Numbered from the stretch's first letter, positions 38,341-64,000 are shown. The stretch: DNA of 64,000 bases from Escherichia coli (GCF_011045215.1 NZ_CP049201.1); one strand, 5' to 3'. Numbers and translations are program-made. The notes: a model not told the origin generated them from the sequence alone.

Positions 38341-38439
38341 ATGGCAATGAGCTTCTGATAATTAAGAGTTCGTCAAGTAGTTAAAAGAGTTTTTTCATGT
38401 GCATCCAGTCTCAACTTATAAATGAGAAGGATGTGCGTA

Positions 38440-39315
38440 ATGAACATTCTGCCCGTTGTGTCCACCAAAGGTGGCGAAGGAAAATCAACCCAGTCTGCTA
38501 ACCTTGCCGGTTTTCTGGCGGATGCCGGCCTCCGTACCCTGCTGATAGACGGAGACCATGCCCAGCCCACGGCAAGCAATATCTTTCCGCTGACGTATGA
38601 AGCGCCGGCCGGTCTTTTTGAATTACTGATGCGCACGGCTGACCTCAGTCATCCCGACAACATCATTTCCCGCACGGCTATCGACGGCCTTGACCTGATA
38701 GTCTCCAATGACCCCCATGAACAACTGAAAACGGCCATGCTTCATGCGCCGGATGGTCGTCTCCGTCTGCGTAATGTGCTCCAGCATCCGCTTTTCCAGA
38801 GCTATGACGTCATTGTGGTGGATTCACAGGGCGCGCGTTCCGTCATGCTGGAAATGATTGTGCTGTCTGCCACGGAGTCTGTGGTGGGGATGGTGAATCC
38901 GGTTCTGCCGGATGTGCGTGAGTTCATTCGCGGCACAGTCAATGTCATGGAAAACCTGTTGCCCTACCGTGAACTGGGTATCCCCCTGCCGAAAGTCCGC
39001 ACCCTGGTTAACTGCATGGATTATACGGCGCTGGCCAGACAAACACTGGCGGAGCTGACCGACATTATTAACTCCGGTCGCTACAGCAAAGTGCTTCCGG
39101 AAGGCGCGGTCACCCTGCTTTCAACACAGATTTATGACCTGAATATTTACAAACAGGGACACGCAGCCGGCCAGCCGGTGCACCGCCTTGAAAAAGCGTC
39201 TGCCCGTCGCAGTGATTCTGCGCTGGTCACCATGCACAGCCTGGCCTGTGAGTTGTTGCCGGAGTGGAGTGAGTTTTTTGATGTACTGCTGGAAAACGGA
39301 GGTGAAAGCCTGTGA
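38440..39315 (+). CDS. parA: ParA/Soj-family partition ATPase
   Basis: Deviant Walker A VSTKGGEGKST and Walker B VIVVDSQG. The start is placed at the ATG at 38440 (SD AAGGA 8 nt upstream). The ORF track start at 38422 is 6 codons longer. Confidence 0.85.
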   Translation: MNILPVVSTKGGEGKSTQSANLAGFLADAGLRTLLIDGDHAQPTASNIFPLTYEAPAGLFELLMRTADLSHPDNIISRTAIDGLDLIVSNDPHEQLKTAMLHAPDGRLRLRNVLQHPLFQSYDVIVVDSQGARSVMLEMIVLSATESVVGMVNPVLPDVREFIRGTVNVMENLLPYRELGIPLPKVRTLVNCMDYTALARQTLAELTDIINSGRYSKVLPEGAVTLLSTQIYDLNIYKQGHAAGQPVHRLEKASARRSDSALVTMHSLACELLPEWSEFFDVLLENGGESL

Positions 39316-39701
39316 ACAGAAAACTGATATGGCGTGCTGTGGCTTCAGCTTCAGTTTCCTGCCCCGGACACGATGAAGTGCATGTGTTTGTTGAGGCTGC
39401 AGATTACGAAGAAGCGAAAAAACATTTGTATGACCGTCTGGAGGAGGAATGGCAGCTTCCTGTGAGCCACATAACTTTCCACAACGTGTGGAATGAAAAC
39501 GAGCTATGTGAAATGTCTGCAGGTCCGAAGGTGCCTTCAGGCCTTCCCCTGCTTGAGTCGGGTGGGGGAAATGGTGAGGTCTTTTATGACCATAATCCGC
39601 TGCTCCTCATTGCTTCTCAGCGTCTCAGGGCTGTGATTGAAGGGGTGCTGAGTGTCCTGCCAGAGCGTGGTGAACAGGATGAGTGTGGTCGTGGAATTTA
39701 A
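39312..39701 (+). CDS. Hypothetical protein (translationally coupled to parA)
   Basis: 129-aa ORF whose GTG start overlaps the parA stop (GTGA). I recognise no domain. Confidence 0.5.
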   Translation: MNRKLIWRAVASASVSCPGHDEVHVFVEAADYEEAKKHLYDRLEEEWQLPVSHITFHNVWNENELCEMSAGPKVPSGLPLLESGGGNGEVFYDHNPLLLIASQRLRAVIEGVLSVLPERGEQDECGRGI

Positions 39702-39942
39702 GTCTCTGACAGGTCGCAGCCGGACAGTATGTGTCGGGTGTGGTTATTCCGGTGTTCGGTTTGGTGATGCTGCAGGCCAGGACACCCGGCAGTGGGTGAA
39801 GGTGAATCATGAGAGCGGGCTGGGGCTGTGCTCCGGCTGTGATGCCTTTCTTTTGCAGGAACGCCTGCGTCGTCAGCGGCATGACCCGCTTTTTTCATGT
39901 GGTGTTTCCGGCAAACATCGAAAAACAGAGGGGGCGATATGA
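39679..39942 (+). CDS. Hypothetical small zinc-ribbon-like protein
   Basis: The ORF contains CVGC..(34 aa)..CSGC. The start is uncertain (ATG at 39679 or 39652). Confidence 0.4.
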   Translation: MSVVVEFKSLTGRSRTVCVGCGYSGVRFGDAAGQDTRQWVKVNHESGLGLCSGCDAFLLQERLRRQRHDPLFSCGVSGKHRKTEGAI

Positions 39943-39981
39943 CAGTTTTTGTAATGCATATCCCTGTCGGTACCGGGGACA

Positions 39982-40002
39982 GCGGACATGTGTGGTGTCC
40001 GC
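39982..40002. terminator. Hairpin between convergent ORFs
   Basis: GCGGACA-tgtgtgg-TGTCCGC lies between the stop at 39942 (+) and the stop at 40017 (-). Confidence 0.35.
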
Positions 40003-40016
40003 TGCATGCTGATGAA

Positions 40017-40445
40017 TCAGCCTTTACCCGTGAACGGGTCATCCAGCTTATCCAGACGTCTTTCTGCGTTGCGCAACACGTCCTGTGCTCCCGGGGTGGA
40101 TGCATATGCCTCCAGTTCAGCAGCAAGAGCCTGTTCCATTTCTGTTGCTGTCATGGCAGCAACATCGGCCGCAGAGCGGTTGTCGCGAATAATGAGGTAG
40201 CTGTGCAGGATATTAAGTGGTGCCACATTTTTATTGATGTTTTTCAGCCCCTGCTGAACCGCCAGCCAGTCGCCCAGCCACTGCAGGCGATACAGTTTGT
40301 GACGGTTGTAAGTTTCATTCGTTGTGTTACAGGCCATACGCCAGAACTCCTCAGACATGTTGATGAGCGTATTTTCACCTTCCGGCAGACTGAACGCAGC
40401 GAAGTCATCAATGCCGGACGGCAGTTGTTGATGATTTGTATTCAT
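40017..40445 (-). CDS. Hypothetical protein, member A of a small island-specific paralogue family (N-terminus MNTxxQLPSGI)
   Basis: 142 aa with SD AAGGA and an ATG. It shares RHKLYRLQWLGDWL and AADVAAMTATEMEQALAAELEAY with ORF B (DHKLAYRLCWLRHWL, PATVEQMTPAEISLALTDYWSEY). That is similarity at the protein level across diverged DNA. Confidence 0.55.
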   Translation of the reverse strand: MNTNHQQLPSGIDDFAAFSLPEGENTLINMSEEFWRMACNTTNETYNRHKLYRLQWLGDWLAVQQGLKNINKNVAPLNILHSYLIIRDNRSAADVAAMTATEMEQALAAELEAYASTPGAQDVLRNAERRLDKLDDPFTGKG

Positions 40446-40618
40446 GTTTTTTCCTTACTAAGTCAGAGTGTTATGAATATAAAGATGCTGTCCGTACCTT
40501 CTGACCGGGGTCGCCAAACTTGCCGGTCTGAAAACGTACAGACAGTTACCGGGATTTTACTCCCGACAGCTGTACGTCCGGCACCCTTTTTTCTTTTTTT
40601 ACATAGTCCGGTTTCTGG
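40408..40618 (+). repeat. Copy A of the ~210-bp conserved hairpin-rich intergenic element
   Basis: It aligns along its full length with 41414-41621 and 42530-42737. See findings for the helices. Confidence 0.85.
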
Positions 40619-40667
40619 CCCTGTGGGTCGGTATACCTGTTCCCGTTAAATGAGAAGGAGTGGAATC

Positions 40668-41165
40668 ATGAACCGTAATCCGTCTGAAAATCTGTCTGAA
40701 AACGCGTCCCGCCAGTTCCTGTCCCTGGCCTCGCCAGCAGAGGCTGCATGCCATGCACTGCTTCGTTTCATTGAACGTGAGATTCTTGAGAAAAATGCGC
40801 CTGAAGAGCAGGTCCGGGAACGTTGCAGGGTATTCACCACACTGCTTAATGAGGGATTTACTGCCCTGTCTGATAAGGCTGGGCAGAATTTAGCTGACCT
40901 CCGGGAACAGTGCCGGCAACTGGAGCATCACATCACCAGACTTGGAGATGAATGCAACGATGTTAATCGCAGAAGCGCAGAGATTACCCGCAACATCAAT
41001 CGGGCTTTCGATATGAACATAGCGCTTGATATTGCCAGTCGGTCATATAATTCAACGCCTTCTGGCTCGTCCAGTACTCACTCCAGTAGTCCGTCAGAGC
41101 AAGAGATATCTCAGCAGGTGTCATCTGCTCAACCGTTGCCGGGAGCCAGTGATGCTGATGAATAA
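40668..41165 (+). CDS. Hypothetical protein (coiled-coil-like N-terminal part, Ser-rich tail)
   Basis: Strong SD AAGGAG 7 nt before the ATG at 40668. The last ~170 nt overlap the convergent ORF B, so the C-terminal extent is doubtful. Confidence 0.45.
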   Translation: MNRNPSENLSENASRQFLSLASPAEAACHALLRFIEREILEKNAPEEQVRERCRVFTTLLNEGFTALSDKAGQNLADLREQCRQLEHHITRLGDECNDVNRRSAEITRNINRAFDMNIALDIASRSYNSTPSGSSSTHSSSPSEQEISQQVSSAQPLPGASDADE

Positions 41166-41448
41166 GCGCAAACTTAACGGCTTCCGGAATGCTGATGAAG
41201 CCATCATCCCGGAAAAACCAGTGGCGGCTGTGAATCAGCCAGTGTCTGAGCCAGCAGAGTCGGTAGGCGAGCTTATGGTCTGCGCCGGGAAAGATTTCAG
41301 TTCCCTGGTCAAAGAAGGTTTTACAACGTTCCACATCGTCGGGGGCCATGCGTCCGGCTTTCCAGTCTTCAAAGTATTTTTCATTGCTGTCAGTGACATA
41401 AGGACAGTTGTTATCAATGCCGGACGGCAGTTGTTTTTCTGTATTTAT
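40996..41448 (-). CDS. Hypothetical protein, paralogue B; the homologous start codon is ATA (possible pseudogene or downstream start at 41349)
   Basis: The frame is open for 151 codons: (I)NTEKQLPSGIDNNCPYV...MAPDDVERC.... SD AAAGGAG is present, but the position that is ATG in copies A and C reads ATA here. The first in-frame ATG gives the 117-aa ORF 40996..41349. Confidence 0.45.
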   Translation of the reverse strand: MNTEKQLPSGIDNNCPYVTDSNEKYFEDWKAGRMAPDDVERCKTFFDQGTEIFPGADHKLAYRLCWLRHWLIHSRHWFFRDDGFISIPEAVKFALIHQHHWLPATVEQMTPAEISLALTDYWSEYWTSQKALNYMTDWQYQALCSYRKPD

Positions 41449-41621
41449 AAAAATTCTCCTTTAAAACAATCTGTTATGAGTATGCGAATGCTGTCCGTAC
41501 CTTCTGACCGGGGTTGCCAGACTTGCCGGTCTGAAAACGTACAGACAGTTACCGGGATTTTATTCCCGACAGCTGTACGTCCGGCACCCTTTTTCCTTTT
41601 TTTACACAGCCAGGTTTCCGG
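41414..41621 (+). repeat. Copy B of the ~210-bp conserved hairpin-rich intergenic element
   Basis: Direct-orientation repeat of 40408-40618. Confidence 0.85.
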
Positions 41622-41675
41622 TTATCTGCGGGGAAGTGACGCACCTGGCGGGCTGAGAGATATGGAGGTGAAAGT

Positions 41676-48237: not shown

Positions 48238-49482
48238 ATGGCGTTACCTGCGGAAAGCCTGATTGCGTATACCCTGGAAAAAATGAAGCACCGTATGACC
48301 ACCGGAGCCCGGAAGGAGGAGGGGCGAATACGCAGCGGACTGTTGTTCACCGGCAATGTGCACGATGCCATTCCGCGTCGTCTGTTGCTGGATACGCGTC
48401 TTTCACCGCTGGACAAGATGGCATGGATGATGATCCGGCTGTATGCGCAGAATAATGAGGGGGCCATTTTTCCTACTTACGATGAACTGCAACTGCAGCT
48501 GGCATCGCCGGGAAAGGGAAAAGCTTCCAGAGAAACCGTCAGCCGGGTATTGCTGATGTTGCGGATCACGGGCTGGCTGAGCCTGTGTAAACGGGTACGT
48601 GATGATAAAGGCCGGGTTCGGGGAAACATTTACGCCCAGCATGACGAGCCCCTGACGTTCTGCGATGCAGAGGCGATGGATCCGCGTTATCTGGATATAG
48701 TGGCAGAAGCCTGTATGAGCCGGAACCGGACCATCAGTCAGACGGCACGGGATATTCTTTGTGAAATAAAAAATGATCCGGGAATGCGTCACTATCACAG
48801 CCATATCAGTCAGCTGGAAGCCCGGATAGGAAGTGCCCAGACACCGGGGCAGATGGCTGCCCGTCAGCGGGTGACAGAGGACAGAATGCGGCCGGGTTCG
48901 GAAACCGAACCAGTGGTGAGAACACTGAGTTCGGCACCGGAAAAGCTGAGTTCGGAAACCGAACCGGGTAAAAAAATGGGGCAAAAAAGACAGAGTTCGG
49001 ATCCCGAACCATCAGGAAAATCAGCAGGTTATCACAGAGTCCGGGAACCGAACCATTACGTACGTAATATCACACACAGTGTGATTAAAAACACGTACGT
49101 ACTGCCGGCGTCGCTGACGGGGCAAATCAGGGAGGAAGATGCCATCATGCTGACTAGTCAGTTGCAGGCGTTGCCGGAAGCGCTGGCACAGGGGGTGCTG
49201 GAAAGCCTGTCAGGGATGCTGGGCAGTCAGTCACTGCAGAACCCGGTGGGCTGGCTGCTTGCAGTGCTGAAGCGTGCCCGGGAGGGAAATTTTTATCCAC
49301 CGAAACAGAAACAGCGCGTCGCTGCATCAGCCACCATACAGGCGGGAGCGGGAGGGCGCACCACTTCGCAGCCTGTTGTCACCCGGAAACGTACAGAACC
49401 CATTTCAGCAGAACGTCTGAGTGGCATTGTGGCAGGACTACGGGCCTCCCTTCGCAACCGTCCTGCGATGAGAGCCCGGTGA
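48238..49482 (+). CDS. Winged-helix Rep-like protein (STY4528-family 'pathogenicity island replication protein' type)
   Basis: SD GAGGTG before the ATG at 48238. It has a wHTH-like segment SRETVSRVLLMLRITGWLS. Its position upstream of the tandem array is the same as in SPI-7-like islands. The family name is from memory. Confidence 0.65.
   Translation: MALPAESLIAYTLEKMKHRMTTGARKEEGRIRSGLLFTGNVHDAIPRRLLLDTRLSPLDKMAWMMIRLYAQNNEGAIFPTYDELQLQLASPGKGKASRETVSRVLLMLRITGWLSLCKRVRDDKGRVRGNIYAQHDEPLTFCDAEAMDPRYLDIVAEACMSRNRTISQTARDILCEIKNDPGMRHYHSHISQLEARIGSAQTPGQMAARQRVTEDRMRPGSETEPVVRTLSSAPEKLSSETEPGKKMGQKRQSSDPEPSGKSAGYHRVREPNHYVRNITHSVIKNTYVLPASLTGQIREEDAIMLTSQLQALPEALAQGVLESLSGMLGSQSLQNPVGWLLAVLKRAREGNFYPPKQKQRVAASATIQAGAGGRTTSQPVVTRKRTEPISAERLSGIVAGLRASLRNRPAMRAR
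48895..49053. repeat. Cluster of GTTCGG-N3-CCGAAC palindromes inside the Rep-like gene
   Basis: GGTTCGGAAACCGAACC 48895-48911; half-site GTTCGG 48929-48934; GTTCGGAAACCGAAC 48950-48964; GTTCGGATCCCGAAC 48995-49009; GTCCGGGAACCGAAC 49039-49053. Confidence 0.8.
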
Positions 49483-49506
49483 TGGCGTTGTGATTCACGT
49501 TCACAG

Positions 49507-51149: not shown

Positions 51150-51265
51150 TACTGAACTTCCCTTTCTTCCCCATTTTTCTGTGGCCTGAATCTGGTTTTC
51201 TGTTGTTCCTTCTGCGCTTCGTCCTGACGATCTCACTTTATCCCTGATTGTTATAAGGAACTGAT

Positions 51266-51964: not shown

Positions 51965-51974
51965 TGGGGGATAA

Positions 51975-53984: not shown

Positions 53985-54217
53985 TCTTAATTTCTCCCTG
54001 TTCAGGATCGGGTAGTGTGGTTAAGCTTTGATGTATACCCCCGTTATCAGCGGGAGGCTGGCTCAACGAAAACACAACGGCGTTCAGTCAGCTACTGATA
54101 CCACAACCGGCCATCGCACATCCTGTCGGGTTGTAAGGCGCATGCCCTCCGTGAAAAACGCGCCGGGATTTATCCCCGGAGACAAGTGAGATAACCACCG
54201 GGCTGGTACCCCCCTGT

Positions 54218-54248
54218 AACGGCGCTGTATTTGCAGCGCCGTTTTTTA
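54218..54248 (+). terminator. Rho-independent terminator of topB
   Basis: AACGGCGCTG-tattt-GCAGCGCCGTT followed by TTTTTATT. Confidence 0.75.
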
Positions 54249-54255
54249 TTCCGGG

Positions 54256-54284
54256 TTGACTTTCCATGGATGTGTTTTAAAAAT
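54256..54284 (+). promoter_or_regulatory. Candidate sigma70 promoter for the structured leader and DUF3577-like/ssb genes
   Basis: -35 TTGACT (54256-61), a 16-17 nt spacer, then TAAAAA/AAAAAT. The predicted start is ~20 nt before the tandem hairpin element. Confidence 0.4.
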
Positions 54285-54310
54285 AACCGGGCTTATTTGC
54301 TGCATCTGCA

Positions 54311-54404
54311 GCCAGCCAATGTTTCAGCAGTCTGAGAGAAACGCCTTCGGGTGACTGCCAGCCAACGTTTCACCGGCCTGAGAGAAACACCTTCGGGTGG
54401 CCGG
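54311..54404 (+). ncRNA. Tandem (2 x 46 nt) hairpin/pseudoknot element with compensatory stem changes; a STAXI-motif-like leader
   Basis: Unit 1 stem GCAGTC(54327-32)/GACTGC(54353-58). Unit 2 stem CCGGCC(54373-78)/GGCCGG(54399-404). The loop TGAGAGAAAC(G/A)CCTTCGGGT is conserved and contains a C(G/A)CC-UUCG-GGUG mini-hairpin. GTTTC 5' of each stem can pair with GAAAC in the loop to form a pseudoknot. Confidence 0.5.
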
Positions 54405-54567
54405 AATATCCTCGTAGCCTGAAAGAGGATGCCTGTGGGCGGTACATCCGTTTAACCTCTGGAAACGGATATCACTGTTCAGTGATTGAGGTCTTTTTAC
54501 TTCTCAGACAGCCGGAATTCAGCTGATCCGGCATCCCCGACGGGAACATTCACTTCCGTCAGGGATG

Positions 54568-54594
54568 GTGATGTTCTCCGTCATCACATTTTTT
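54568..54594 (+). terminator. Terminator/attenuator-like hairpin in the leader, with an anti-SD loop
   Basis: GTGATG-ttctccgt-CATCAC-A-TTTTTT lies 20 nt before the ATG at 54615. The loop TTCTCC is complementary to the SD GGAGAA (54603-08). Confidence 0.4.
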
Positions 54595-54614
54595 AACTCC
54601 ATGGAGAAATCATC

Positions 54615-55070
54615 ATGTCTGTAAATACTGCTAAAACTGAATACTTTAATCTGACCCTGAAAGGTCTGGGGTATCTCAGTAATGTACGTCAGGTGAATCA
54701 CCAGAACGGCTCGTTTCTCAGCTGTGTGGTGAATGCGCTGAGCGGACCCACGGACAGCCCGTCCTACGTCCGTTTTGATGTCACGGTTGCCGGTAAAGAG
54801 GCGACTGCCCTGATTGCCCGCTGCCAGAAGGCGGTGGATGAAGATCGCAAGGTGCTGCTTGGCTTCACGCTGAGCAACCTGTCCACTGACATCTTCACTC
54901 TGAACAAGGGAGAGCATGCCGGTGAACAACGCGTCAGCCTGAAGGCCCGCCTGATCAAGGTGGACTGGATCAAGATAGGCCAGGAGATGGTTTACAAGGC
55001 TGAAAAATCAGACTCCCAGCCGCCGCAAAACGGCACCATGCAACAGCAATACGCAGAAAACTCTTTCTGA
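54615..55070 (+). CDS. DUF3577-like protein (STY4534-family 'ICE replication protein' type)
   Basis: 151 aa starting MSVNTAKTEYFNLTLKGLGYLSNVRQV.... It sits between topB and ssb, as in SPI-7-like islands. The family name is from memory. Confidence 0.65.
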   Translation: MSVNTAKTEYFNLTLKGLGYLSNVRQVNHQNGSFLSCVVNALSGPTDSPSYVRFDVTVAGKEATALIARCQKAVDEDRKVLLGFTLSNLSTDIFTLNKGEHAGEQRVSLKARLIKVDWIKIGQEMVYKAEKSDSQPPQNGTMQQQYAENSF

Positions 55071-55096
55071 TCGTACTTTTCTCAACCGTCCTGATG

Positions 55097-55135
55097 AAAA
55101 CAGACTGCCTCATCAGGGCGGTCTGTTTTCTTATT
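55097..55135 (+). terminator. Terminator-like hairpin(s) after 54615..55070
   Basis: AAAACAGAC(55097-105)/GTCTGTTTT(55121-29) is followed by CTTATT. It overlaps the alternative hairpin CCTGATGA/TCATCAGG. Confidence 0.5.
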
Positions 55136-55160
55136 GTCTTTATCTTTAAGGAAACTTCTT

Positions 55161-55364
55161 ATGCAACAGCCAAATGGCATGCTGGCCGCACAGGCCGGCT
55201 ATACGTTACCCCTTCAGGTTCTCCGCAGCGTACGTGGTTATTATATTGGTACTCAGTGTGATGAGGGACCGGTGTCCCGCGAATCCGTGGAGTATTACAG
55301 AGACCATGAGCAGGCGGCACAGGCGCTGGAAAGCGGCACCTGGACGCAGCGGACGTGTGCGTGA
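55161..55364 (+). CDS. Hypothetical small protein
   Basis: 67 aa from the ATG at 55161 (SD AAGGAAA): MQQPNGMLAAQAGYTLPLQVLRSVRGYYIGTQCDEGPVSRESVEYY.... Confidence 0.5.
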   Translation: MQQPNGMLAAQAGYTLPLQVLRSVRGYYIGTQCDEGPVSRESVEYYRDHEQAAQALESGTWTQRTCA

Positions 55365-55379
55365 GGATGAGGAGGCTAT

Positions 55380-55913
55380 ATGGCATCACGCGGTATTAAT
55401 AAGGTGATACTGATAGGACATCTTGGACAGGATCCGGAGATTCGTTATCTTCCCAATGGCGGAGCCGTGGCGAACCTGACCCTGGCCACCAGTGAATCCT
55501 GGCGTGATAAACAGAGCGGTGAAATGAAGGAGCAGACCGAGTGGCACCGCGTGGTGATTTTCGGAAAACTGGCGGAGATAGCCGGTGAATACCTGCGTAA
55601 GGGTTCACAGGTGTACATCGAGGGCCAGTTAAAGACCCGGAAGTGGTTCGATCAGCAGAATGGTGTTGATCGCTACGCAACGGAAGTGGTGGTGAGTGTC
55701 AACGGCACCCTGCAGATGCTGGGCTCTCCGCGCCAGCAGGCCAGTGGTGCCGCACCCGTACACAGCGGTCAGGGAACTGCCGGTGCGCCGGCGGGTAACT
55801 CACCGTCACCGGCTTCCGGGAACGGCGGGGGAATGCCGATGGATTTTGACGACGACATTCCCTTCAGTGGACCGGGATATGGCGCTGAACGGCGGATTAT
55901 CCATGCCATGTAA
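55380..55913 (+). CDS. ssb: Single-stranded DNA-binding protein with a 15-aa extension beyond the canonical DDDIPF tip
   Basis: OB fold [44 protein letters not shown], a Gly/Pro/Ala-rich linker, then MDFDDDIPF followed by [15 protein letters not shown]. Confidence 0.9.
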
Positions 55914-55923
55914 TGTTAACCCC

Positions 55924-55947
55924 GGGGGCATCACTGCCCCCATTTTT
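55924..55947 (+). terminator. Rho-independent terminator after ssb
   Basis: GGGGGCA-tcac-TGCCCCC followed by ATTTTT. Confidence 0.7.
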
Positions 55948-55961
55948 ACCAAGGAGGTATC

Positions 55962-56894
55962 GTGAGTGAAAAAAATCATACCACCCCCACGCCACACGAT
56001 GCGGCGTTCAGGGCGATGATGGAAACCCCTTCGGTTGCAAGGGATTTTCTGGAGGCTGCGTTGCCGCCGGCACAGTTACAGCGGTGCGATATGAACACCC
56101 TGAAGCTGGAGCCGGCCACGTTTGTGGATCCGGATTTGCGTCAGTATGCCAGTGACGTTCTGTGGAGCATGAAAACCACCGACGGGCGTGATGGTTACAT
56201 CTACGCGCTGACGGAACATCAGAGCTCTGCGGATCGTTTTATGGCCCTGCGCATGATGCATTATGTGCTGGCGATAATGTATCGTCACCTGAAAACGCAT
56301 AATCAGGCCCCCGTTGTGATCCCGGTGCTTTTTTATCACGGTGAACCCAGTCCGTATCCGTACAGCCTGAACTGGCTGGACTGTCTGGACGATCCGGCGC
56401 TTGGTCGTGAGCTTTACGGCGAAGGAAAGCCGCCCCGCGTCATTGATGTGGGTCTTCTTGATGATGAGGGTATCCGTCACTATCAGCAGATGGCGGCCCT
56501 GATGCTTCTGATGAAGGTCCGTCAGCGGAAGGGCGATCTGATGACGCAGCTTGACTTTCTGTCACAGTTGCTTCAGATACAGGGAACACACGATCAGGTG
56601 GTGGTTCTGTTAAACTATATGGTGAAGGCGTGCGATTCGGCTTCACCGGAATTTATACGGGTGATGGCAGAACATCTGCCCCGGTATGAGGATGATATTA
56701 TGACTATCGCTGAACGACTTGAACTGGCGGGTATCGAAAAAGGTATCGAAAAAGGCCGTCAGGAAGAGAGAGAAAAGGCGCTTGAGAAGACGCTTGAGGC
56801 TGCCCGTCGGATGCAGAAGATGGGGATGTCGCCTGAGAGTATTCAGGAGATCCTGCAGCTTTCTGATGACGAGCTGCGGAAAGCGCTCGGTTAA
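55962..56894 (+). CDS. Rpn-family recombination-promoting nuclease / putative transposase (YhgA-like, PD-(D/E)XK)
   Basis: 310 aa with a GTG start after SD AGGAGG. The N-terminus TPTPHDAAFRAMMETPSVARDFLEAALP and D..LW..K..DG..YIYALTEHQS are typical Rpn/Transposase_31 motifs. Confidence 0.85.
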   Translation: MSEKNHTTPTPHDAAFRAMMETPSVARDFLEAALPPAQLQRCDMNTLKLEPATFVDPDLRQYASDVLWSMKTTDGRDGYIYALTEHQSSADRFMALRMMHYVLAIMYRHLKTHNQAPVVIPVLFYHGEPSPYPYSLNWLDCLDDPALGRELYGEGKPPRVIDVGLLDDEGIRHYQQMAALMLLMKVRQRKGDLMTQLDFLSQLLQIQGTHDQVVVLLNYMVKACDSASPEFIRVMAEHLPRYEDDIMTIAERLELAGIEKGIEKGRQEEREKALEKTLEAARRMQKMGMSPESIQEILQLSDDELRKALG

Positions 56895-56963
56895 TCCGTT
56901 TCCGTGTTATCACGGGGCGGGGTGTGGCTGATATGAGAGGCCACTTTCCGCATAATCAACATC

Positions 56964-56993
56964 ACGCCAGCTTTTACGCTGGCGTTTTTTTTG
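56964..56993 (+). terminator. Rho-independent terminator after rpn
   Basis: ACGCCAGC-ttttac-GCTGGCGT followed by TTTTTTTT. Confidence 0.75.
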
Positions 56994-57079
56994 TTTACTG
57001 ATAATGAGTTGTTCGTTGAGCCTGCCGGCGCTTCTTTGCACAGTGACCGCTGTTTTATCACTGCAGAGGAGTTATCCGG

Positions 57080-57682
57080 ATGAAGATGCAACCCGGGATC
57101 TTATTTTCCCTGGTTACCCTGGCCCTGCTGGCCGGGTGTAACAGCCCACAAAAACTTCAGCAACGTGCGCCGGCCACGCCGGTACCTTCCGTCAGCGTTT
57201 CCCGCAATGTACAGCCGGTGTCACAGGATATTTATGCGCAGCCGGCACCGGAGGTGGTGCGTTACGACCGTTACCTGCTGGTCAGCACGGCACCGCAGGC
57301 CGCGCAGCGTGACCCGCTTTCCCAGGTGATTGATATCCGTATTCCGGCGTCGTTAAAGCCCACCGTGGCTGATGCCATGCGTTATGCCCTGAAACAGTCC
57401 GGTTACACGCTGTGTGTCACCGGGCCGGCCAATGGTGTGTTGTACCGCCAGCCCCTGCCCGCCGTGCAGTATCAGCAGGGACCGGTGCGACTGCGTACGG
57501 CCCTGCAGGTGATGGCGGGACCGGCCTGGCAACTGGAGGTGGATGACGTTCAGCGTGTGGTCTGCCACAGCCTGCGGGCGGGGTATCAGTTACCGGCAGG
57601 CCAGCTGGCACCCGTGTCGGTTTCCCCGGTAATCACGGCCCCGGTGGTGCAACCGGTTAAGGGAGGCTTCCTGAAAAAATGA
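57080..57682 (+). CDS. pilL: PilL-type conjugative-transfer-region lipoprotein (PFGI-1 class)
   Basis: Lipobox LALLAGC, with VVRYDRYLLVSTAPQAAQRDPLSQVIDIRIP..VADAMRYALKQSGYTL resembling the PilL N-domain. Confidence 0.7.
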   Translation: MKMQPGILFSLVTLALLAGCNSPQKLQQRAPATPVPSVSVSRNVQPVSQDIYAQPAPEVVRYDRYLLVSTAPQAAQRDPLSQVIDIRIPASLKPTVADAMRYALKQSGYTLCVTGPANGVLYRQPLPAVQYQQGPVRLRTALQVMAGPAWQLEVDDVQRVVCHSLRAGYQLPAGQLAPVSVSPVITAPVVQPVKGGFLKK

Positions 57683-58452
57683 GCAAACAACAGGAGATGA
57701 TGACACCTGTTCCGGCAGATAACCCCACAACACGCCGGTGTTCACTTCTGCGGGGTGTGGCAGTCGGCTCCCTGATCCTGCTGGTTATGGTGGCGGGCAT
57801 GGCGCTGTATCTGACAGGGCGCGGCATGCTGGCGATGGATACCCGCCTGGCAACACTGGAACAACAGCAGGGGGAGCGTCTGACACCGGCGGCGCTGGCC
57901 CCGTTACAGTCACGACTGAGTGAACTGGAGACGAAGCTGCAGACGGAGAGTGCGCGTCTGGCGCAGCTGGCCCGGCAGCCCGTTCTGACGGAGGTTCAGC
58001 AGACGCAGCTTAATGGACTGCCGGCGTCCCTTGAGCAGATTCAGGCGGCACAGAAGGCCCTTTTCCTGCGGCTGGACACACTGGCGGCACTGGCAGAGAA
58101 GTCACAGTCCCGGGCGGTTCAGTCCGAATCCCCCTCTGCTTCCGGTACTGAGAAAAAGGACGTATCCGGAACGAAAGAACCCTCTCCGGTGGTACAGAAA
58201 ATCGCCCGCCCTGCAACGGCACGCTCAGGTACGTCACACACCTCCCGTTACGCACCGTTTGTGCTGACCGGCACCGAGCGCCGGGGGGCGCTGTCATATG
58301 CGGCGGTGGCACCCCGGGGATATACCAGCCTGTCGCAGGTGGCACTGCTCGGGGAAGGTGAGAGTGTGGCCGGCTGGACACTGATTCATGCCGGTCACGA
58401 ACAGGCGACGTTCCGGGTGAACGGACGTCCGGTACAGGTCAGGGTGGAGTGA
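57679..58452 (+). CDS. ICE transfer-region membrane protein (single TM, coiled coil)
   Basis: 257 aa with an ATGA overlap with pilL. It has an N-terminal TM segment LLRGVAVGSLILLVMVAGMALYL. Confidence 0.55.
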   Translation: MSKQQEMMTPVPADNPTTRRCSLLRGVAVGSLILLVMVAGMALYLTGRGMLAMDTRLATLEQQQGERLTPAALAPLQSRLSELETKLQTESARLAQLARQPVLTEVQQTQLNGLPASLEQIQAAQKALFLRLDTLAALAEKSQSRAVQSESPSASGTEKKDVSGTKEPSPVVQKIARPATARSGTSHTSRYAPFVLTGTERRGALSYAAVAPRGYTSLSQVALLGEGESVAGWTLIHAGHEQATFRVNGRPVQVRVE

Positions 58453-58458
58453 GTGAAG

Positions 58459-59178
58459 ATGAGACTGAAATCCCTGTTACTGGTGATGCTGATACCTGCA
58501 CTGGCGCAGGCTGCAGACCAGAACACGACCGGGACGGACGCGTCCCGCACGGATACGTCACAGCATACGCAGAGCACCACGCAGTCGCTGCAACAGCAGG
58601 CTGGCCGGTGGGGACTGAGTGAGGAGGACTGGGGGCGTTATCAGGAACTGATGGCGGGACCCCGCGGGATACAGTCGCCGGGTCTGGACCCGCTGACAGC
58701 ACTGGGTATTGAGGCCCGTACACCGGCTGAACGCCGTGCATATGCCGAAAAGTGGGTGAAGGAAGAGTATGCCCGTACGGAGAAGGAGCTGGCTTTTCAG
58801 CGGGAGGTTGATGCGGCATGGCAGCGTCTTTATCCCGGAAAGCTGCCGGTCAGTATGGGCAATACCGGTATTCTGACCGGGGACACCGGAGGCAGACTGG
58901 CGCTGTTTGTGAAGGCGAAGGACTGTGCGTCCTGTGATATCCGCCTGAGTAAGGTGCTGGCATCCGGTAAGCCGGTGGATATTTATCTGGTGGACAGTCA
59001 GGGGAAAGACGGAGTGCTTCGTCAGTGGGCACGTGAGCACAACATCCCACCAGAGAAGGTCCGCAGCCGGCATATCACCCTGAACCATGATGCGGGGCGC
59101 TGGCTGCGTTTTGGTGAGGGACAGATGCCGGTGGTACTGCAGCAGGGGGCAGACGGATGGCGCGTGGCTGCATTCTGA
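58459..59178 (+). CDS. Periplasmic ICE protein with a thioredoxin-like CxxC (PFL_4693-family-like)
   Basis: Signal peptide MRLKSLLLVMLIPALAQA and the CASC motif (KAKDCASCD). The ORF track start is GTG at 58453. Confidence 0.55.
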   Translation: MRLKSLLLVMLIPALAQAADQNTTGTDASRTDTSQHTQSTTQSLQQQAGRWGLSEEDWGRYQELMAGPRGIQSPGLDPLTALGIEARTPAERRAYAEKWVKEEYARTEKELAFQREVDAAWQRLYPGKLPVSMGNTGILTGDTGGRLALFVKAKDCASCDIRLSKVLASGKPVDIYLVDSQGKDGVLRQWAREHNIPPEKVRSRHITLNHDAGRWLRFGEGQMPVVLQQGADGWRVAAF

Positions 59179-59819
59179 GTCTTCTGCTGATGACGGGCAT
59201 GTGTCAGGCCGTTGCGCAGACCATTCCGGACGGCTATGTGCAGGTGGCCCGTGCACATGGGATTCCGGCAGAAGTGCTGTATGCCGTCTCCCTGACAGAG
59301 ACCGCCATGGCACCCGGGGATGTGGCCGGCGTCATGCAGTATTCCCGCCGCGACGGGCGTCTGCCGGATGTCTCCCGCCCCTGGCCCTGGACACTCAATG
59401 TGGCCGGGAAGGGGTACCGTTATGCCAGCCGTCTGGAGGCCTGGCAGGCACTGCAGGTGTTTCTGAAACGTTATCCGGCCAGACGCATTGATGTCGGGAT
59501 AGCGCAGGTCAATCTGGGGTGGAATGGTCATCGCTTCCCGTCAACATGGGCGGCCTTTGACCCGTACATCAGTCTTGAGACGGCGGCGGTCATTCTGCAG
59601 GAGTGCCGTCAGCGCCATCCCGACAGCTGGCTGAAGACAGCCGGTTGTTATCACCATCCTGCCGGTGGAAAGCCGGCCGCCCGTTACACCGCTGTGGTCA
59701 GACGTCATCTGGACCGGCTGTATGTCCGGTCAGCAACAACAGGTATGACGTCACGGCAGACAGCCATGCTGGCACCGGCTGCGGATTATATCTGGACAGA
59801 GCCCCGGAGGCGCGAATGA
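59157..59819 (+). CDS. Lytic transglycosylase (SLT domain) of the transfer apparatus
   Basis: It has a signal peptide and the motifs AVSLTET (catalytic Glu region), PWPWTLNV and DVGIAQVN. Confidence 0.75.
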   Translation: MARGCILSLLLMTGMCQAVAQTIPDGYVQVARAHGIPAEVLYAVSLTETAMAPGDVAGVMQYSRRDGRLPDVSRPWPWTLNVAGKGYRYASRLEAWQALQVFLKRYPARRIDVGIAQVNLGWNGHRFPSTWAAFDPYISLETAAVILQECRQRHPDSWLKTAGCYHHPAGGKPAARYTAVVRRHLDRLYVRSATTGMTSRQTAMLAPAADYIWTEPRRRE

Positions 59820-60343
59820 ACAGACTGAAACGGATTATCCCTTTTACTTTTCCTGTATGGCTTCTGTTTTCAGCGAACGTCAGTGCTGAACTGACGGTGA
59901 TTGCTGACCTGGGCGGCAGGGATGCTGCTCCTTTTTTTGAGGGTATCAACCGGCAGGCACCGGCTTCTGCTCCGGTTGTTTCACCACCGCCTCTTCTGCA
60001 GGGGGAAGCCGCGATGCTGCCGGTCAGCACACCTGAAATGTCACCCGGCGAGGTGACACCACGCCCGCTTCAGCTACCGGGCATCGGTGCACTTTTCCTT
60101 GTGGGGGATGATGCGTATTCCCGCGAGTGGCTGCAGAAAAATGCTGCTGCGCTCCGGGCGCGCCATGCCGTCGGGATGGTGGTGAATGTGGCTGATGAAA
60201 ACGGCCTGCGCACGCTGCGTGAACTGGCCCCCGGCGTGGCGATGGCACCGGCATCCGGTTCTGCGCTGGCCCGCCGGTTACAGCTGAAGTCTTACCCGGT
60301 ACTGATAACGGACAACGGGCTGTCACAGGAGGTGGTGCCATGA
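59816..60343 (+). CDS. ICE protein (PFL_4695-family-like), secreted
   Basis: The ATG at 59816 forms an ATGA overlap with the upstream gene. Signal peptide MNRLKRIIPFTFPVWLLFSANVSA. Confidence 0.55.
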   Translation: MNRLKRIIPFTFPVWLLFSANVSAELTVIADLGGRDAAPFFEGINRQAPASAPVVSPPPLLQGEAAMLPVSTPEMSPGEVTPRPLQLPGIGALFLVGDDAYSREWLQKNAAALRARHAVGMVVNVADENGLRTLRELAPGVAMAPASGSALARRLQLKSYPVLITDNGLSQEVVP

Positions 60344-60945
60344 TGCCGGCACCAGTGATAACCGCAGCCCTGCTGGTCAGCCCGGTGCTGATGGCCTGTC
60401 TGATGCTCTGCCTGCTGACCGTGTTGCTGATGCTCATTCTGCGGGAATGTCGACGGAAACGGGGAGGTGTCCGGAACCGTCGCCATCAGCGTTACCGTGC
60501 CACCGCCGCCCGGGTACTGGGCAGACTGAAGACGCTGCCGGGGGATGCGCATCGTCTGAAGTATCTGCGCAAAATCAACCCGTATGTCTTCGAAGAATTG
60601 CTGTTACTGGCCCTGAAGCAGCAGGGGATGACGGTTATCCACAATCCCTGCTACAGCGGTGATGGTGGTCTGGACGGACAGGTGATGATTAACGGTGAGC
60701 GCTGGCTGATACAGGCAAAGCGCTACGGACGGACCATCCGCCCGGCACATATTGATGCCTTCGGGGAACTGCTGCGCCGGGAGGGCTGCCGGGGGTTTTT
60801 TATTCATACCGGCCGTACGGGGCCGGCCAGCCGGGCCAGGCTGACACTGTGGCCGGATATCGAACTGGTCAGCGGGCAGCGTCTGCTGAAACTGCTGAAC
60901 GGAACATTACTGACAGATGAACTTACCAGAGGGGAGCGGAGATGA
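60340..60945 (+). CDS. Membrane-anchored restriction-endonuclease-like (Mrr_cat) protein
   Basis: N-terminal TM segment (VITAALLVSPVLMACLMLCLLTVLLMLIL), then FEELLLLALKQQG..GDGGLDGQV..LIQAKRY, a D-(x)n-QxK PD-(D/E)XK core. Confidence 0.65.
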   Translation: MMPAPVITAALLVSPVLMACLMLCLLTVLLMLILRECRRKRGGVRNRRHQRYRATAARVLGRLKTLPGDAHRLKYLRKINPYVFEELLLLALKQQGMTVIHNPCYSGDGGLDGQVMINGERWLIQAKRYGRTIRPAHIDAFGELLRREGCRGFFIHTGRTGPASRARLTLWPDIELVSGQRLLKLLNGTLLTDELTRGERR

Positions 60946-61454
60946 TGACGGTAAAACGGATGTTTATGCTTTTATTCAGAGTGGTGATTGTCTGGCCGGC
61001 CATGCTGACGGGATGCCTGATGATGCTGTATTTCGCAGAGGTTGCCAGCGGTGGTGTGACAGGGCTGGCGCAGCGTTATGAGGCGGAGTCTGCCCGCTGG
61101 CGTGATGCGCCGGAAGGGGCGGTGATGATGCTCCGGTGTCCGTCGCGTCCCTTTGTGGTGCCGGTAACAACCGGGGAGTGGCGTGCACTGTCCGCCACTG
61201 ATGCAGAATGCCTCCGGGCACCGCGCTCTTTCAGGCAGGCTGCGGAGGCAGATTTTCAGTCACTGCACATACTGGCGCTGACACTGCTGCTGGCATCCGT
61301 GGTTCTGGAAGGCATTTCGGCCGGCATGTTGCGCCGGAAAACCGCATCCGTACCGGTATCACCACACTGTGGATGTGGCCGGGGCCGTGGTGCGGTTGCA
61401 CACTGGCCTGAGCGTGACAGTGATGCGACATCACAGAAGGGAGGCCCGGTATGA
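60942..61454 (+). CDS. Hypothetical membrane protein
   Basis: 170 aa with an ATGA overlap with the upstream gene and two hydrophobic segments. Confidence 0.5.
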   Translation: MMTVKRMFMLLFRVVIVWPAMLTGCLMMLYFAEVASGGVTGLAQRYEAESARWRDAPEGAVMMLRCPSRPFVVPVTTGEWRALSATDAECLRAPRSFRQAAEADFQSLHILALTLLLASVVLEGISAGMLRRKTASVPVSPHCGCGRGRGAVAHWPERDSDATSQKGGPV

Positions 61455-61496
61455 CCGTTTCACTGCTGGCCCGTGTGCAGGCAAATGTTCCTTGCA

Positions 61497-61615
61497 AAAT
61501 GGCATCTGAATCGATCGCAGTTTGGCATTCGAATCGATCATGATTTGGCATCCATCTCCGATCACAGTTTGGCATCACAATCGATCACGATTTGGCATAC
61601 TTCCGATCATTGATT
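61497..61615 (+). repeat. Five ~23-bp phased subterminal repeats of the IS21-family left end
   Basis: TGGCAT occurs at 61500, 61523, 61546, 61570 and 61593, each followed 7-10 nt later by (C)GATC. Multiple terminal repeats are a hallmark of IS21-family ends. Confidence 0.7.
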
Positions 61616-61693
61616 GGAATTCGCCAGTCACTCCGGGAATTAACTCTTTTCACCACAGTCTCCATTGCCGTGTTTAAACCAGTGGAGACGTCA

Positions 61694-63259
61694 ATGTCCA
61701 AAAAGAGAAAATCCAGGAGCACTATGGAAACTTGTTTTAAGATCCTTCAGCTCAAGTTCGATAAGAAGCTGACTAACCGTTGTATCGGACTGACGTTACA
61801 CATCAGCGCCTCAACCGTTTTTGAGGTTCTTGCCCGCTTCAAAGCCTCTTCTCTGTCATGGCCATTACCTGCTGATATATCCCATGACACGCTGGAGAAA
61901 CTCATTTTCCCGCCCAAAGACACCTCTGCGTCAGAGCTTGTTATGCCTGACATGCTGTACTTCGATACGGAAATGAGAAAACCTGGCGTGACGCGCCAAC
62001 TGTTGTGGATGGAATACAAGGCACAGGCGGGTGACAAAGCGATGGGATACTCACACTTCTGCCGTTGCTACCGGAAGTGGAAAAAAACGCGACGCCTCTC
62101 CATGCGACAGGAGCATCGTGCTGGCGAAAAGCTCTTTATCGACTTCTGTGGTCCTACGGTCCCTGTTATTAATCCGGACACCGGAGAGATACGCCGCGTG
62201 GCAATCTTCGTGGCTGTAATGGGGGCGTCCAACTATACCTATGTTGAAGCGTGCGAAGGTCAGGACATGATGTCATGGTTAAATGCCCACAGCCGTTGCC
62301 TGACCTTCCTGGGCGGCGTACCGAAGCTGCTCATCCCCGATAACCTCAGAAGCGCAGTGAAAAAAGCCGATCGCTATGAGCCTGTCATCAACGACAGTTA
62401 TCAGGCGCTGGCTGAGCACTATGGCACGGTTATTATCCCGGCCCGCCCGCGCAAACCTAAAGATAAACCAAAAGCAGAAAACGGCGTCCTCATCGTCGAG
62501 CGATGGCTTCTTGCCCGCATCCGTAATGAAACCTTCCACACGCTCAGGGCGCTGAATGCACGCCTTCGGGAGTTGCTGACGGACATGAATAACCGACCAA
62601 TGAAGGGATACGGTAATCAAACCCGCGCAGAACGCTTCCGCATGCTGGATGCACCAGCACTCTCTCCGCTGCCTCTGGAGCCTTATGAATACACGGAATA
62701 CAAAGCCGTGAAGGTTGGCCCTGACTACCACGTTGAATATGCCCGTCACTGGTACTCCGTTCCACACGAACTGGTCGGTCAGCGTCTGTCACTGAAGGTG
62801 GGGCAGTCGGTGGTACAGCTCTGGCACAAGGGGCAGTGTGTGGCGCAACATCCGCGCAGCACACATGAATATAAACACACAACCAATCCGCTTCACATGC
62901 CAGAACGCCACCGGCGGCATGGGACATGGACACCGGAACGCCTTATCGAGCAGGGAAACCGTACAGGTCCGTCCACAGGCCGGGTGGTTGAATCCATGCT
63001 GAAAGCCAAACCCCATCCGGAGCTGGCTTACCGTGCAGTCCTGGGTCTGCTGGCACTTCAGAAAAAATACGGCCCGGAACGGCTGGAAAAGGCCTGTTAC
63101 GTTGCCCTGCACTATAACGCCCCGGACAGACGCTTTATCGACAATCTGCTGCGTCATCATCGGGATAACGTTGAGCTTCCGTTATCCCGCCAGGGCGAAC
63201 AACATCCGGCATATGCTTCAGAGCATGAAAACCTGCGTGGTCCTGGCTACTACCACTGA
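61694..63259 (+). CDS. istA: IS21-family transposase IstA
   Basis: The start is placed at the ATG at 61694 (SD GGAG). It has an N-terminal HTH and DDE residues in FIDFCGP, LIPDNLRSAV and KPKAENGV. Confidence 0.9.
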   Translation: MSKKRKSRSTMETCFKILQLKFDKKLTNRCIGLTLHISASTVFEVLARFKASSLSWPLPADISHDTLEKLIFPPKDTSASELVMPDMLYFDTEMRKPGVTRQLLWMEYKAQAGDKAMGYSHFCRCYRKWKKTRRLSMRQEHRAGEKLFIDFCGPTVPVINPDTGEIRRVAIFVAVMGASNYTYVEACEGQDMMSWLNAHSRCLTFLGGVPKLLIPDNLRSAVKKADRYEPVINDSYQALAEHYGTVIIPARPRKPKDKPKAENGVLIVERWLLARIRNETFHTLRALNARLRELLTDMNNRPMKGYGNQTRAERFRMLDAPALSPLPLEPYEYTEYKAVKVGPDYHVEYARHWYSVPHELVGQRLSLKVGQSVVQLWHKGQCVAQHPRSTHEYKHTTNPLHMPERHRRHGTWTPERLIEQGNRTGPSTGRVVESMLKAKPHPELAYRAVLGLLALQKKYGPERLEKACYVALHYNAPDRRFIDNLLRHHRDNVELPLSRQGEQHPAYASEHENLRGPGYYH

Positions 63260-63275
63260 CAGAAGGAACAACCGT

Positions 63276-64000
63276 ATGAGTGATAATCTGTTAAACAAAC
63301 TGACCCAACTGAAACTCCCGGCGATGGCCGGGAGCCTGATACGGCAACGGGAAACGCCTCAGACTTACGACGAACTGTCGTTCGAGGAAAGGCTGACACT
63401 GCTGGTTGATGACGAGCTTCTGAGCAGAGAAAACAGTCGTGTGGCACGGTTGAGAAAAAATGCCTGCCTGAAATATCAGGCAACACCGGAAGGGCTGCGT
63501 TATCCGGCCTCAAGAGGTCTGCGGGCTGAACAGATGAGGGAACTGCTGAACGGCCACTACATAATCCACAGGAAAAACCTACTGATAACCGGTCCGACAG
63601 GATGCGGTAAGAGCTGGATAGCCAATGCGCTGGGCGAACAGGCATGTCGACAGAAATACAGCGTCCGGTACTGTAGAACCGGGCGATTACTGGAACAGTT
63701 GGCTCAGGGACGTGTTGATGGCAGTTGGCTGAAATATCTGAAACAGTTGCAAAAAATACAGGTTCTAATCCTGGACGATCTGGGGCTGGAACAGTTAAGT
63801 AACGCCCAGTGTAATGACCTTCTGGAGATCACAGAGGATCGTTACGGACAAAGCAGCACGATAGTGGTAAGCCAGTTCCCGGTAGATAAATGGCATGGTC
63901 TGATGGAGAACCCAACAACAGCAGATGCCATCCTGGACAGACTGGTACATAACTCACACAGAGTGGTCCTTCAGGGAGAGTCCCTGAGGAAAAATCCCCC
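63276..64000 (+). CDS. istB: IS21-family helper ATPase IstB (3' end beyond the window)
   Basis: The ATG is at 63276 and the frame is open to the window edge: MSDNLLNKLTQLKLPAMAG..., with Walker A GPTGCGKS and Walker B VLILDDLG. Confidence 0.9.
   Translation, partial: MSDNLLNKLTQLKLPAMAGSLIRQRETPQTYDELSFEERLTLLVDDELLSRENSRVARLRKNACLKYQATPEGLRYPASRGLRAEQMRELLNGHYIIHRKNLLITGPTGCGKSWIANALGEQACRQKYSVRYCRTGRLLEQLAQGRVDGSWLKYLKQLQKIQVLILDDLGLEQLSNAQCNDLLEITEDRYGQSSTIVVSQFPVDKWHGLMENPTTADAILDRLVHNSHRVVLQGESLRKNP

Follow-up and report, generated by a model that had tools for sequence, protein, structure and literature searches.

The segment from position 38341 to the end of a 64,000-nucleotide (nt) stretch of Escherichia coli DNA (GCF_011045215.1, NZ_CP049201.1; the whole stretch is referred to as the window) is best read, with a probability of about 0.93, as the left arm of an ICE (integrative and conjugative element) of the SPI-7/PFGI-1 class. 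This class takes in PAPI-1, pKLC102 and the ICEclc-ICEHin1056 superfamily (PMC5812530), and the present copy falls in an ICEEc2-like Escherichia lineage inserted in the 3′ end of the tRNA-Phe gene pheU. The ICE type, the E. coli lineage and the pheU site have all been described before, and public annotation already names the genes.

Gene identities were assigned with NCBIfam and Pfam hidden Markov models (HMMs), each matched above its curated cut-off (Table 1). The genes that the initial annotation had named from the sequence alone, running from parA to a PFL_4695-like gene, were all found at their positions and in the proposed order, the transglycosylase (SLT) owing its name to the RefSeq annotation of relatives only. 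A search with the TIGR037xx ICE families placed TIGR03764, TIGR03761, TIGR03748, TIGR03759 and TIGR03765 above cut-off; the models of the SPI-7-type replication set (island DnaB, STY4528 and STY4534) also scored above theirs, and this set is accompanied by ssb and topB. The two runs taken earlier for tightly coupled operons also hold up. In the first, 4-nt overlaps join dnaB to parB, the DUF2786 gene to the DUF2857 gene, and the latter to a ParE-like gene, with an 8-nt overlap between parB and the DUF2786 gene; among the transfer genes, five junctions show a 4-nt overlap, one a 22-nt overlap and one a 6-nt gap. Features added to the earlier map are the ParE-like gene, the Ead/Ea22-like genes, the Mrr-type nuclease gene, a gene for a 170-amino-acid (aa) protein, an interrupted 262-aa gene and a STAXI RNA.

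Related loci were collected by ParB alignment among GTDB species representatives, where 80 were recovered, spread over more than 25 genera of Enterobacterales; 21 window proteins were compared with these loci by tblastn. The core order parA-dnaB-parB-DUF2857-STY4528-PFL4669-topB-STY4534-ssb was retained, on the same strand and without a single violation, in 80 of 80 loci; at least five of these genes were detected in 71 loci and all nine in 44. Within the species, megablast of positions 38341-58000 against 5426 complete E. coli genomes returned 16 that carry at least 80% of the query (81-93%) at 94-96% identity, all of them chromosomal and annotated with SPI-7-type names; among RefSeq names in islands of about 95-96% identity are 'SPI-7-type island replicative DNA helicase' and 'STY4528 family pathogenicity island replication protein'.

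The left boundary had been set at 38341, and this proved exact. A remnant of the pheU 3′ end precedes it, with an exact match of 23 nt where none is expected by chance; against what we take to be the tRNA-Phe sequence, the match runs on to 38340 and divergence begins at 38341. Alignments with island-free E. coli genomes stop at about 38343, while genomes with a related island align through. The pheU remnant together with this end of chromosomal homology identifies 38341 as the true chromosome/island junction. Integration at a tRNA 3′ end leaves direct repeats, of which the left one lies in the window; the second repeat and an intact pheU are present in strain UMNK88 and would fall beyond the window here. 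ARAGORN detected no intact tRNA within the 64,000 nt. Taken together, family models above cut-off, colinearity in every locus surveyed and a junction at the pheU 3′ end bear out the SPI-7/PFGI-1-class backbone proposed in the initial annotation.

Among the closest known relatives is the ICE of UMNK88 (NC_017641.1, about 4,885,9xx-4,951,496), which occupies the same site between cadC and dicD/dsbD and, like the similar islands of the 16 complete E. coli genomes, has the same backbone order, including mipA, rpn, STAXI and a 36-bp array. At its far end, some 65 kb along, come genes for a UvrD-like helicase, a protein with a TraI domain and a tyrosine integrase, followed by the intact tRNA-Phe gene, which is next to dicD and dsbD; relatives carry TraD, the TIGR03745-03757 proteins, a TraC-like ATPase, TraG, TraI and the integrase. 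By analogy with this same-site relative of about 95% identity, the intact pheU, a tyrosine integrase, a TraI relaxase and the remaining type IV secretion system (T4SS) genes would be expected about 40 kb past the window. UMNK88 differs from the present copy in having one copy of the structured element described below and no accessory genes between parA and dnaB, an array of 7.4 units with mixed palindrome variants, no 170-aa gene, a truncated Mrr-type nuclease gene, and no insertion sequence (IS) in the traD operon. The right arm of its ICE (L125, 18751-24400) holds a CBASS-like set of nucleotidyltransferase, ThiF/E1-like, Mov34/JAB and SAVED-domain proteins, and its cargo also includes an ArdC-family protein and an N-6 DNA methylase.

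The initial annotation had allowed that homology searches might place these genes in a plasmid or a phage family instead, and neither outcome occurred. An integrated conjugative plasmid, or a chromosomally captured pKLC102-like episome, would be in keeping with the plasmid-like module of ParA/ParB, helicase, Rep-like protein and repeat array; a ParB homologue is found in 48 PLSDB records, including 72-82-kb Citrobacter and Salmonella 'plasmids' with an adjoining dnaB-PI, and pKLC102 itself has been described as a plasmid (PMC2647930). This origin is nevertheless very improbable, since the junction is a precise tRNA 3′-end repeat, same-site relatives end with an integrase next to an intact tRNA-Phe gene, 1577 of 1584 E. 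coli matches are chromosomal, and the 48 records come from 72,556 plasmid records, show at most 57% identity in all but one, and may be excised ICE circles. Three of them (H32, H34 and H35; Citrobacter, 71,960 bp; Salmonella, 81,781 bp) are ICE-sized and have dnaB-PI adjoining the ParB homologue, and these may be excised circular forms of related ICEs.

A prophage or phage-plasmid is less credible still. Phage-family relatives do exist for small genes, namely the Ead/Ea22-like genes and the DUF2786 protein (phrog_421), and the parA-dnaB module is also seen on one contig filed as 'viral' in IMG/VR. However, only the DUF2786 and Ead/Ea22-like proteins match PHROGs, in each case a family of unknown function, and that search revealed no phage structural or packaging gene among the window proteins; capsid, tail, terminase and lysis genes are absent, the transfer genes belong to ICE-specific TIGR037xx families, and the IMG/VR contig contains ICE backbone only.

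Several points weigh against the assignment to a SPI-7/PFGI-1-class ICE. The integrase, the relaxase, most T4SS genes and the second pheU copy would all lie beyond the window, so that completeness is predicted from relatives only, and the link to SPI-7, PAPI-1, ICEclc and ICEEc2 is drawn through HMMs named after their genes and through the literature rather than by direct alignment. An IS insertion may make this copy non-transmissible. In addition, palindrome variants coexist within one array beside the STY4528 gene, and neither the ParB nor the STY4528 sequence tracks them (window, L001 and L002).

Table 1. Features of the ICE left arm and its junction, in window coordinates.
Feature	Position	Strand	Basis or remark
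cadC	36137-37675	-	chromosomal flank before junction; chromosome continues to 38340
tRNA-Phe (pheU), last 49 nt; att direct repeat at left junction	38292-38340	-	pheU 3′-end match
parA (Soj-like partition ATPase), first island gene, about 90 nt from junction	38422/38431-39315	+	Pfam AAA_31/CbiA/ParA; ParA annotation in relatives
129-aa accessory gene	39312-39701	+	4-nt overlap with parA
142-aa hypothetical gene, only intact gene call opposing the backbone	40017-40445	-	starts inside repeat copy 1
Structured element copy 1, three-way junction	40408-40606	+	covariance-model match, 217.7 bits
171-aa open reading frame (ORF) 3′ of copy 1, coding status uncertain	40650-41165	+	3′ end overlaps minus-strand paralogue
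Decayed paralogue of 142-aa gene	40996-41349	-	start codon in copy 2 mutated to ATA; L001 counterpart annotated, 150 aa
Structured element copy 2	41414-41609	+	covariance-model match, 215.5 bits
245-aa hypothetical accessory gene	41676-42413	+	annotated in L001; small Enterobacterales-only family
Structured element copy 3	42530-42725	+	covariance-model match, 213.5 bits; ends 35 nt before dnaB-PI start codon
dnaB-PI, SPI-7-type island replicative helicase	42761-44128	+	NF040583, 689.6 bits (cut-off 655)
PFGI-1-class ParB (ICE_PFGI_1_parB)	44125-45804	+	TIGR03764, 379 bits (143.75); 100% identical protein in NCBI
DUF2786/DUF7168 protein	45797-46522	+	Pfam; phrog_421
DUF2857 protein	46519-47097	+	PF11198, 222 bits
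ParE-like toxin-domain protein, coupled to DUF2857 gene	47094-47342	+	PF24732, 68.8 bits
Two small Ead/Ea22-like genes	47416-47691, 47706-48134	+	PF13935; annotation of relatives
STY4528-family island replication protein ('Rep')	48214-49482	+	NF040582, 404.6 bits (130)
Tandem array, 16.4 units of 36 bp, and terminal 16-bp palindrome	49507-50095 (to 50112 with terminal palindrome)	.	between STY4528 and PFL_4669 genes
MipA/OmpV-family outer-membrane protein gene	50355-51101	+	HMM; annotation of relatives
PFL_4669-family ICE protein (Pfam AcaB-like)	51266-51964	+	TIGR03761, 229 bits (110.7); PF08900 on near-identical products
topB, DNA topoisomerase III	51975-53984	+	TIGR01056, 818 bits
STAXI RNA motif	54298-54448	+	RF01728, 135.2 bits (gathering 40.5), full model length
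STY4534-family ICE replication protein (Pfam DUF3577)	54615-55070	+	NF040584, 196.3 bits (160)
ssb, single-stranded DNA-binding protein	55380-55913	+	TIGR00621, 183 bits
Rpn-family (PDDEXK) recombination-promoting nuclease gene	55962-56894	+	TIGR01784, 119.5 bits
Start of transfer operon: PilL, 257-aa protein, TIGR03759, transglycosylase, PFL_4695, Mrr-type nuclease, 170-aa membrane protein	57080-61454	+
PilL	57080-57682	+	TIGR03748, 131 bits (64.15)
TIGR03759 protein	58459-59178	+	269 bits (126.4)
Transglycosylase (SLT)	59157-59819	+	no HMM match
PFL_4695 protein	59816-60343	+	TIGR03765, 135 bits (59.75)
Membrane-anchored Mrr-type nuclease gene	60340-60945	+	HMM
170-aa membrane-protein gene	60942-61454	+
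First 14 codons of 262-aa ICE gene, cut by IS	61451-61492	+
ISSso4-like IS21-family element, runs off window	61493-64000	+	99.8-100% identity to annotated ISSso4 istA-istB copies
IS terminal multiple repeats	61493-61623		23-nt repeats at 61500-61623
istA (IstA transposase)	61694-63259	+	NF033546, 287 bits (160)
istB	starts 63276, runs off window	+

The question of whether this copy can still move turns on the IS21-family element at the right end of the window. E. coli copies of ISSso4 begin at the position corresponding to 61493, and IS-free relatives match the window up to 61492; in those relatives the order is 170-aa gene, 262-aa gene, TraD, with the 262-aa gene coupled on both sides. Since the gene cut by the IS precedes traD and belongs to a translationally coupled operon, this copy's transfer is probably reduced or lost, with a likely polar effect on traD. 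It has to be considered, then, whether the element is an ICE by descent that is now an immobilised remnant, a fixed genomic island whose self-transfer was abolished by the IS in the traD operon and possibly by further lesions; this would concern its functional state, not its family. The place of the insertion, 14 codons into the gene directly upstream of traD and amid genes with 4-nt overlaps, is consistent with such a remnant, as are the uninterrupted state of all six relatives with an identical 170-aa protein, the loss of a start codon by one accessory paralogue, and the related ICEKp2, which excises but does not transfer itself (PMC6761156). It is nonetheless considered unlikely. The backbone ORFs in the window are all intact and 94-100% identical to those of relatives, the 99.8-100% identity of the IS to other copies marks the insertion as recent, and a promoter downstream or within the IS could drive traD.

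The IS was one of four departures from the backbone that the initial annotation had listed, together with mipA, rpn and three repeat-containing modules between parA and dnaB, and it alone looks specific to this strain. The mipA, rpn and Ead/Ea22-like genes were found in every Escherichia-type relative examined (L001-L004 and L083-L088), and mipA and the Ead-like genes were absent from other genera wherever the fetched flanks permit a test; these genes mark the lineage and are not strain cargo. The modules are real, with three repeat copies of about 196-223 nt, and they recur in E. coli strain L001 and in metagenomic contigs.

Comparison with experimentally studied systems places the element within this family at different distances. 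ICEEc2 of E. coli BEN374, the relative known from publications, reportedly described by Roche et al. in 2010 and assigned to the pKLC102/PAGI-2 family, has the host species, the tRNA-Phe site and the family in common with the present element, a likeness taken from citing papers and not from sequence. In one such paper it appears as a PAPI/pKLC102-type ICE in a tRNA-Phe gene that was shown to excise (PMC6761156). ICEEc2-like ICEs sit in pheV or pheU (PMC6761156, PMC13127887), from where ICEs transfer and mobilise chromosomal DNA (PMC13127887). SPI-7 of S. Typhi, which lies between a full and a partial pheU and spans 134 kb with viaB, SopE-phage and type IVB pilus cargo (PMC4100779), resembles the element in its site and in the dnaB_SPI-7_type, STY4528 and STY4534 models scored above cut-off here. 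By contrast, none of that cargo is seen in the window, and the mipA, rpn and Ead-like genes occur only in Escherichia-type loci among the 80 surveyed.

To the Pseudomonas elements PFGI-1, PAPI-1 and pKLC102 the element is tied by TIGR03764 ParB, TIGR03761 PFL_4669, TIGR03748 PilL and TIGR03765 PFL_4695, all matched here; these elements occupy tRNA-Lys, as opposed to pheU. PFGI-1 further resembles the element upstream of the PFL_4669 homologue, where both have a repeat array containing an inverted repeat and share the AGTGTTG motif (PMC2647930). Its array, however, comprises four 46-bp repeats instead of sixteen 36-bp repeats, it has a long pil cluster of which none is seen here, and it is said to be without a Rep protein, whereas an STY4528-family protein adjoins the array in the present element.

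Ordinary as an island, the left arm nevertheless carries a conserved folded element of about 196 nt, with three copies in the interval from parA to dnaB. Thirteen copies served to build a covariance model. The copies recovered with it number 66, of which 59 are distinct; their sources are the window, genomes of E. coli and of other genera, 31 contigs from metagenomes and a single 'viral' one. In addition, blastn located the element at 216 places in 138 of the 5426 E. coli genomes, with no match in plasmids. RNAalifold predicts a three-way junction of 49 pairs with a closing helix of 17 bp, a conserved CACCCTTT and a T-rich run after it; copy 3 has a minimum free energy of -74.2 kcal/mol (z = -6.9). 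Across the 59 distinct sequences, 97.8% of cells pair, a proportion that falls to 34-38% when the partners are slid, and both-side (compensatory) changes occur in 14 of the 49 pairs versus 3.9 ± 1.5 in shuffles, 0 of 500 of which reach 14. A smaller sequence set gave the same picture of covariation. Although the structure is favoured by the fitting of the alignment to the model, the margin is a large one.

The fold is stronger on the plus than on the minus strand (consensus -53.8 versus -39.8 kcal/mol; single-sequence z = -6.9 versus -4.9), with 5-9 G-U pairs per copy against 0-1, and many pairs alternate between U-A and U-G. No Rfam 15 identity was obtained even with lax filters, the best hit being mraW at 18.6 bits against a gathering threshold of 50, and the element is neither EFASI nor STAXI; to our knowledge it has not been described. 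Between 39300 and 42900, promoter and terminator searches returned no sigma-70 promoter and two terminator-like sites, which are unrelated to the element.

At slightly below even odds, the element may be a structured nucleic-acid class without an Rfam 15 family that gates expression of the ICE replication operon and of the neighbouring accessory genes. As to how it might act, a leader or attenuator RNA for the replication operon is given about an even chance. Two other modes are put clearly lower and on a par with each other: control in antisense of the opposite-strand gene, where the element spans the ribosome site and the first 12 codons, and a fold adopted by a single DNA strand during transfer or replication.

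The parA-dnaB interval is a recurrent accessory slot, whose basic unit consists of one opposite-strand gene and the structured element of about 196 nt before dnaB. In most genera dnaB follows directly after parA, while here 3.4 kb intervene. Divergent ICEs whose ParB is about 46% identical show the unit in its simple form, with parA, a 142-aa-like gene on the opposite strand, the element and dnaB in succession. In the window the element is triplicated with extra genes between the copies. At the left edge of each copy, the minus strand holds the beginning of a member of a small gene family (MNTxxQLPSGI...), with its ribosome site, ATG and some 12 codons; the gene is intact at copy 1, has lost its ATG at copy 2 and is a stub at copy 3; a plus-strand gene follows each copy, namely the 171-aa ORF, the 245-aa gene and dnaB. 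Loss of the opposite-strand gene, as in UMNK88 and at copy 3 here, leaves the element intact. An integron-like cassette array was also considered for the three modules and was rejected, there being no IntI-type integrase here and the repeat being a whole divergent intergenic region, not an attC-like site.

The products of the accessory genes gave few clues. Homologues of the 171-aa ORF were found only in L001 and two metagenome/viral contigs. Those of the 129-aa gene follow parA in 11 loci of other genera and are absent from L001 and L002; the place of this gene is presumably that of the small gene shi between parA and parB in ICEclc. For the 129-, 142-, 171-, 117- and 245-aa genes, nothing rose above noise in Pfam, NCBIfam, PADLOC or PHROGs, and the only relatives that database searches returned were small families of hypothetical proteins, with 6 clusters in the case of the 142-aa gene and 19 in that of the 245-aa gene. 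AlphaFold models of the accessory proteins were mediocre (pLDDT 65-67; 66.6 for the 245-aa protein with AF2), and Foldseek against the PDB produced no match below E = 0.08.

A second cis feature, the tandem array, begins 25 nt past the STY4528 stop codon, each unit consisting of an A-tract and the 17-bp palindrome TGCTGCCCgGGGCAGCA. The STY4528-PFL_4669 interval carries arrays of 36-bp or composite period, with 2-16 copies, in 37 of 65 related loci examined, and the palindrome TG(C/T)TG(C/G)(C/G)-NNN-...CA(G/A)CA in 52 loci besides the window. Within the window the motif is confined to the array, apart from one further match inside the IS that is probably due to chance; extra copies near parA were sought and none was found. 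The palindrome varies between near-identical ICEs and within single arrays (e.g. L002), and the form TG(C/T)TGCCAGTGGCA(G/A)CA is retained in the first unit of all Escherichia-type arrays. Since its arms change together and its asymmetric centre occurs in both orientations, sometimes within one locus, a symmetric double-stranded site for a dimer would fit.

Symmetric palindromic units in both orientations suit a dimer or centromere site as well as iterons. A ParB centromere of the sopC type is slightly favoured as the candidate function, at just short of an even chance; Rep iterons are a somewhat less probable candidate. In the F-plasmid sopC, a 16-bp inverted repeat is present in each of 12 tandem 43-bp units, and chromosomal parS is the 16-bp palindrome TGTTNCACGTGNAACA. 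The resemblance of these to the array, where a 17-bp palindrome TG(C/T)TG...CA(G/A)CA occurs in each of 16 tandem 36-bp units, might serve as a lead only, and unlike sopC the array follows the Rep-like gene and not parB. It is also the homologue of the PFGI-1 'putative oriV', a name given to 46-bp repeats that occupy the same place and contain a related inverted repeat (PMC2647930).

A third cis feature, the STAXI RNA, belongs to the backbone: when six other genera were tested, all six had it between topB and the STY4534 gene. Both RNA and single-stranded DNA roles have been proposed for it (PMC2864571).

Several further observations concern individual genes and loci of the family. A homologue of the ParE-like protein was detected in 59 of the 80 loci; because no recognisable antitoxin is annotated, the DUF2857 protein, with which it is coupled, might act as the antitoxin. 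The Mrr-type nuclease gene and the 170-aa membrane-protein gene sit within the coupled transfer operon, and the 170-aa gene is also absent from L001 and L002. In L003 and L004 the PFL_4669/AcaB-like protein is only 57% identical to that of the window against 89-99% for neighbouring proteins, which suggests allele replacement by recombination at a putative regulator. L003, filed as Vagococcus sp. WN89Y, and L080, Pseudomonas lundensis I31, carry Enterobacterales-type copies of the ICE module, the proteins of L003 being mostly 89-100% identical to those of the window, and this taxonomic mismatch is likely to reflect contamination or recent transfer. A group II intron (RF02003 and RF00029) occupies 18533-20511 of L019, just 3′ of the STY4534/ssb region in an ICE copy of Xenorhabdus indica.

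How such an element would work can be sketched from what is known of the ICE family. The integrase would recombine the two pheU repeats and release a circle in which the parA end is joined to the integrase end. ParA, ParB, the helicase, the STY4528 and STY4534 proteins, SSB and topoisomerase III would then maintain and copy this circle, the 36-bp palindromic array beside STY4528 presumably providing the cis site for the maintenance proteins, while the operon from PilL to TraD would build the mating machinery.

As an island, this left arm adds little, its family, E. coli lineage and pheU site having been described. The structured element could repay work, as it combines a covariation-supported structure with the lack of an Rfam family and is placed exactly where the replication operon begins. 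The array, whose conservation extends over more than 25 genera, is the only candidate for a repeated protein site that the maintenance module offers, making it the place to study replication or segregation of the excised ICE. A concise map of the cis sites and maintenance genes is also of practical use, because ICEs of this type at pheU/pheV drive Hfr-like chromosome transfer, from which hybrid E. coli with fluoroquinolone resistance arise (PMC13127887).

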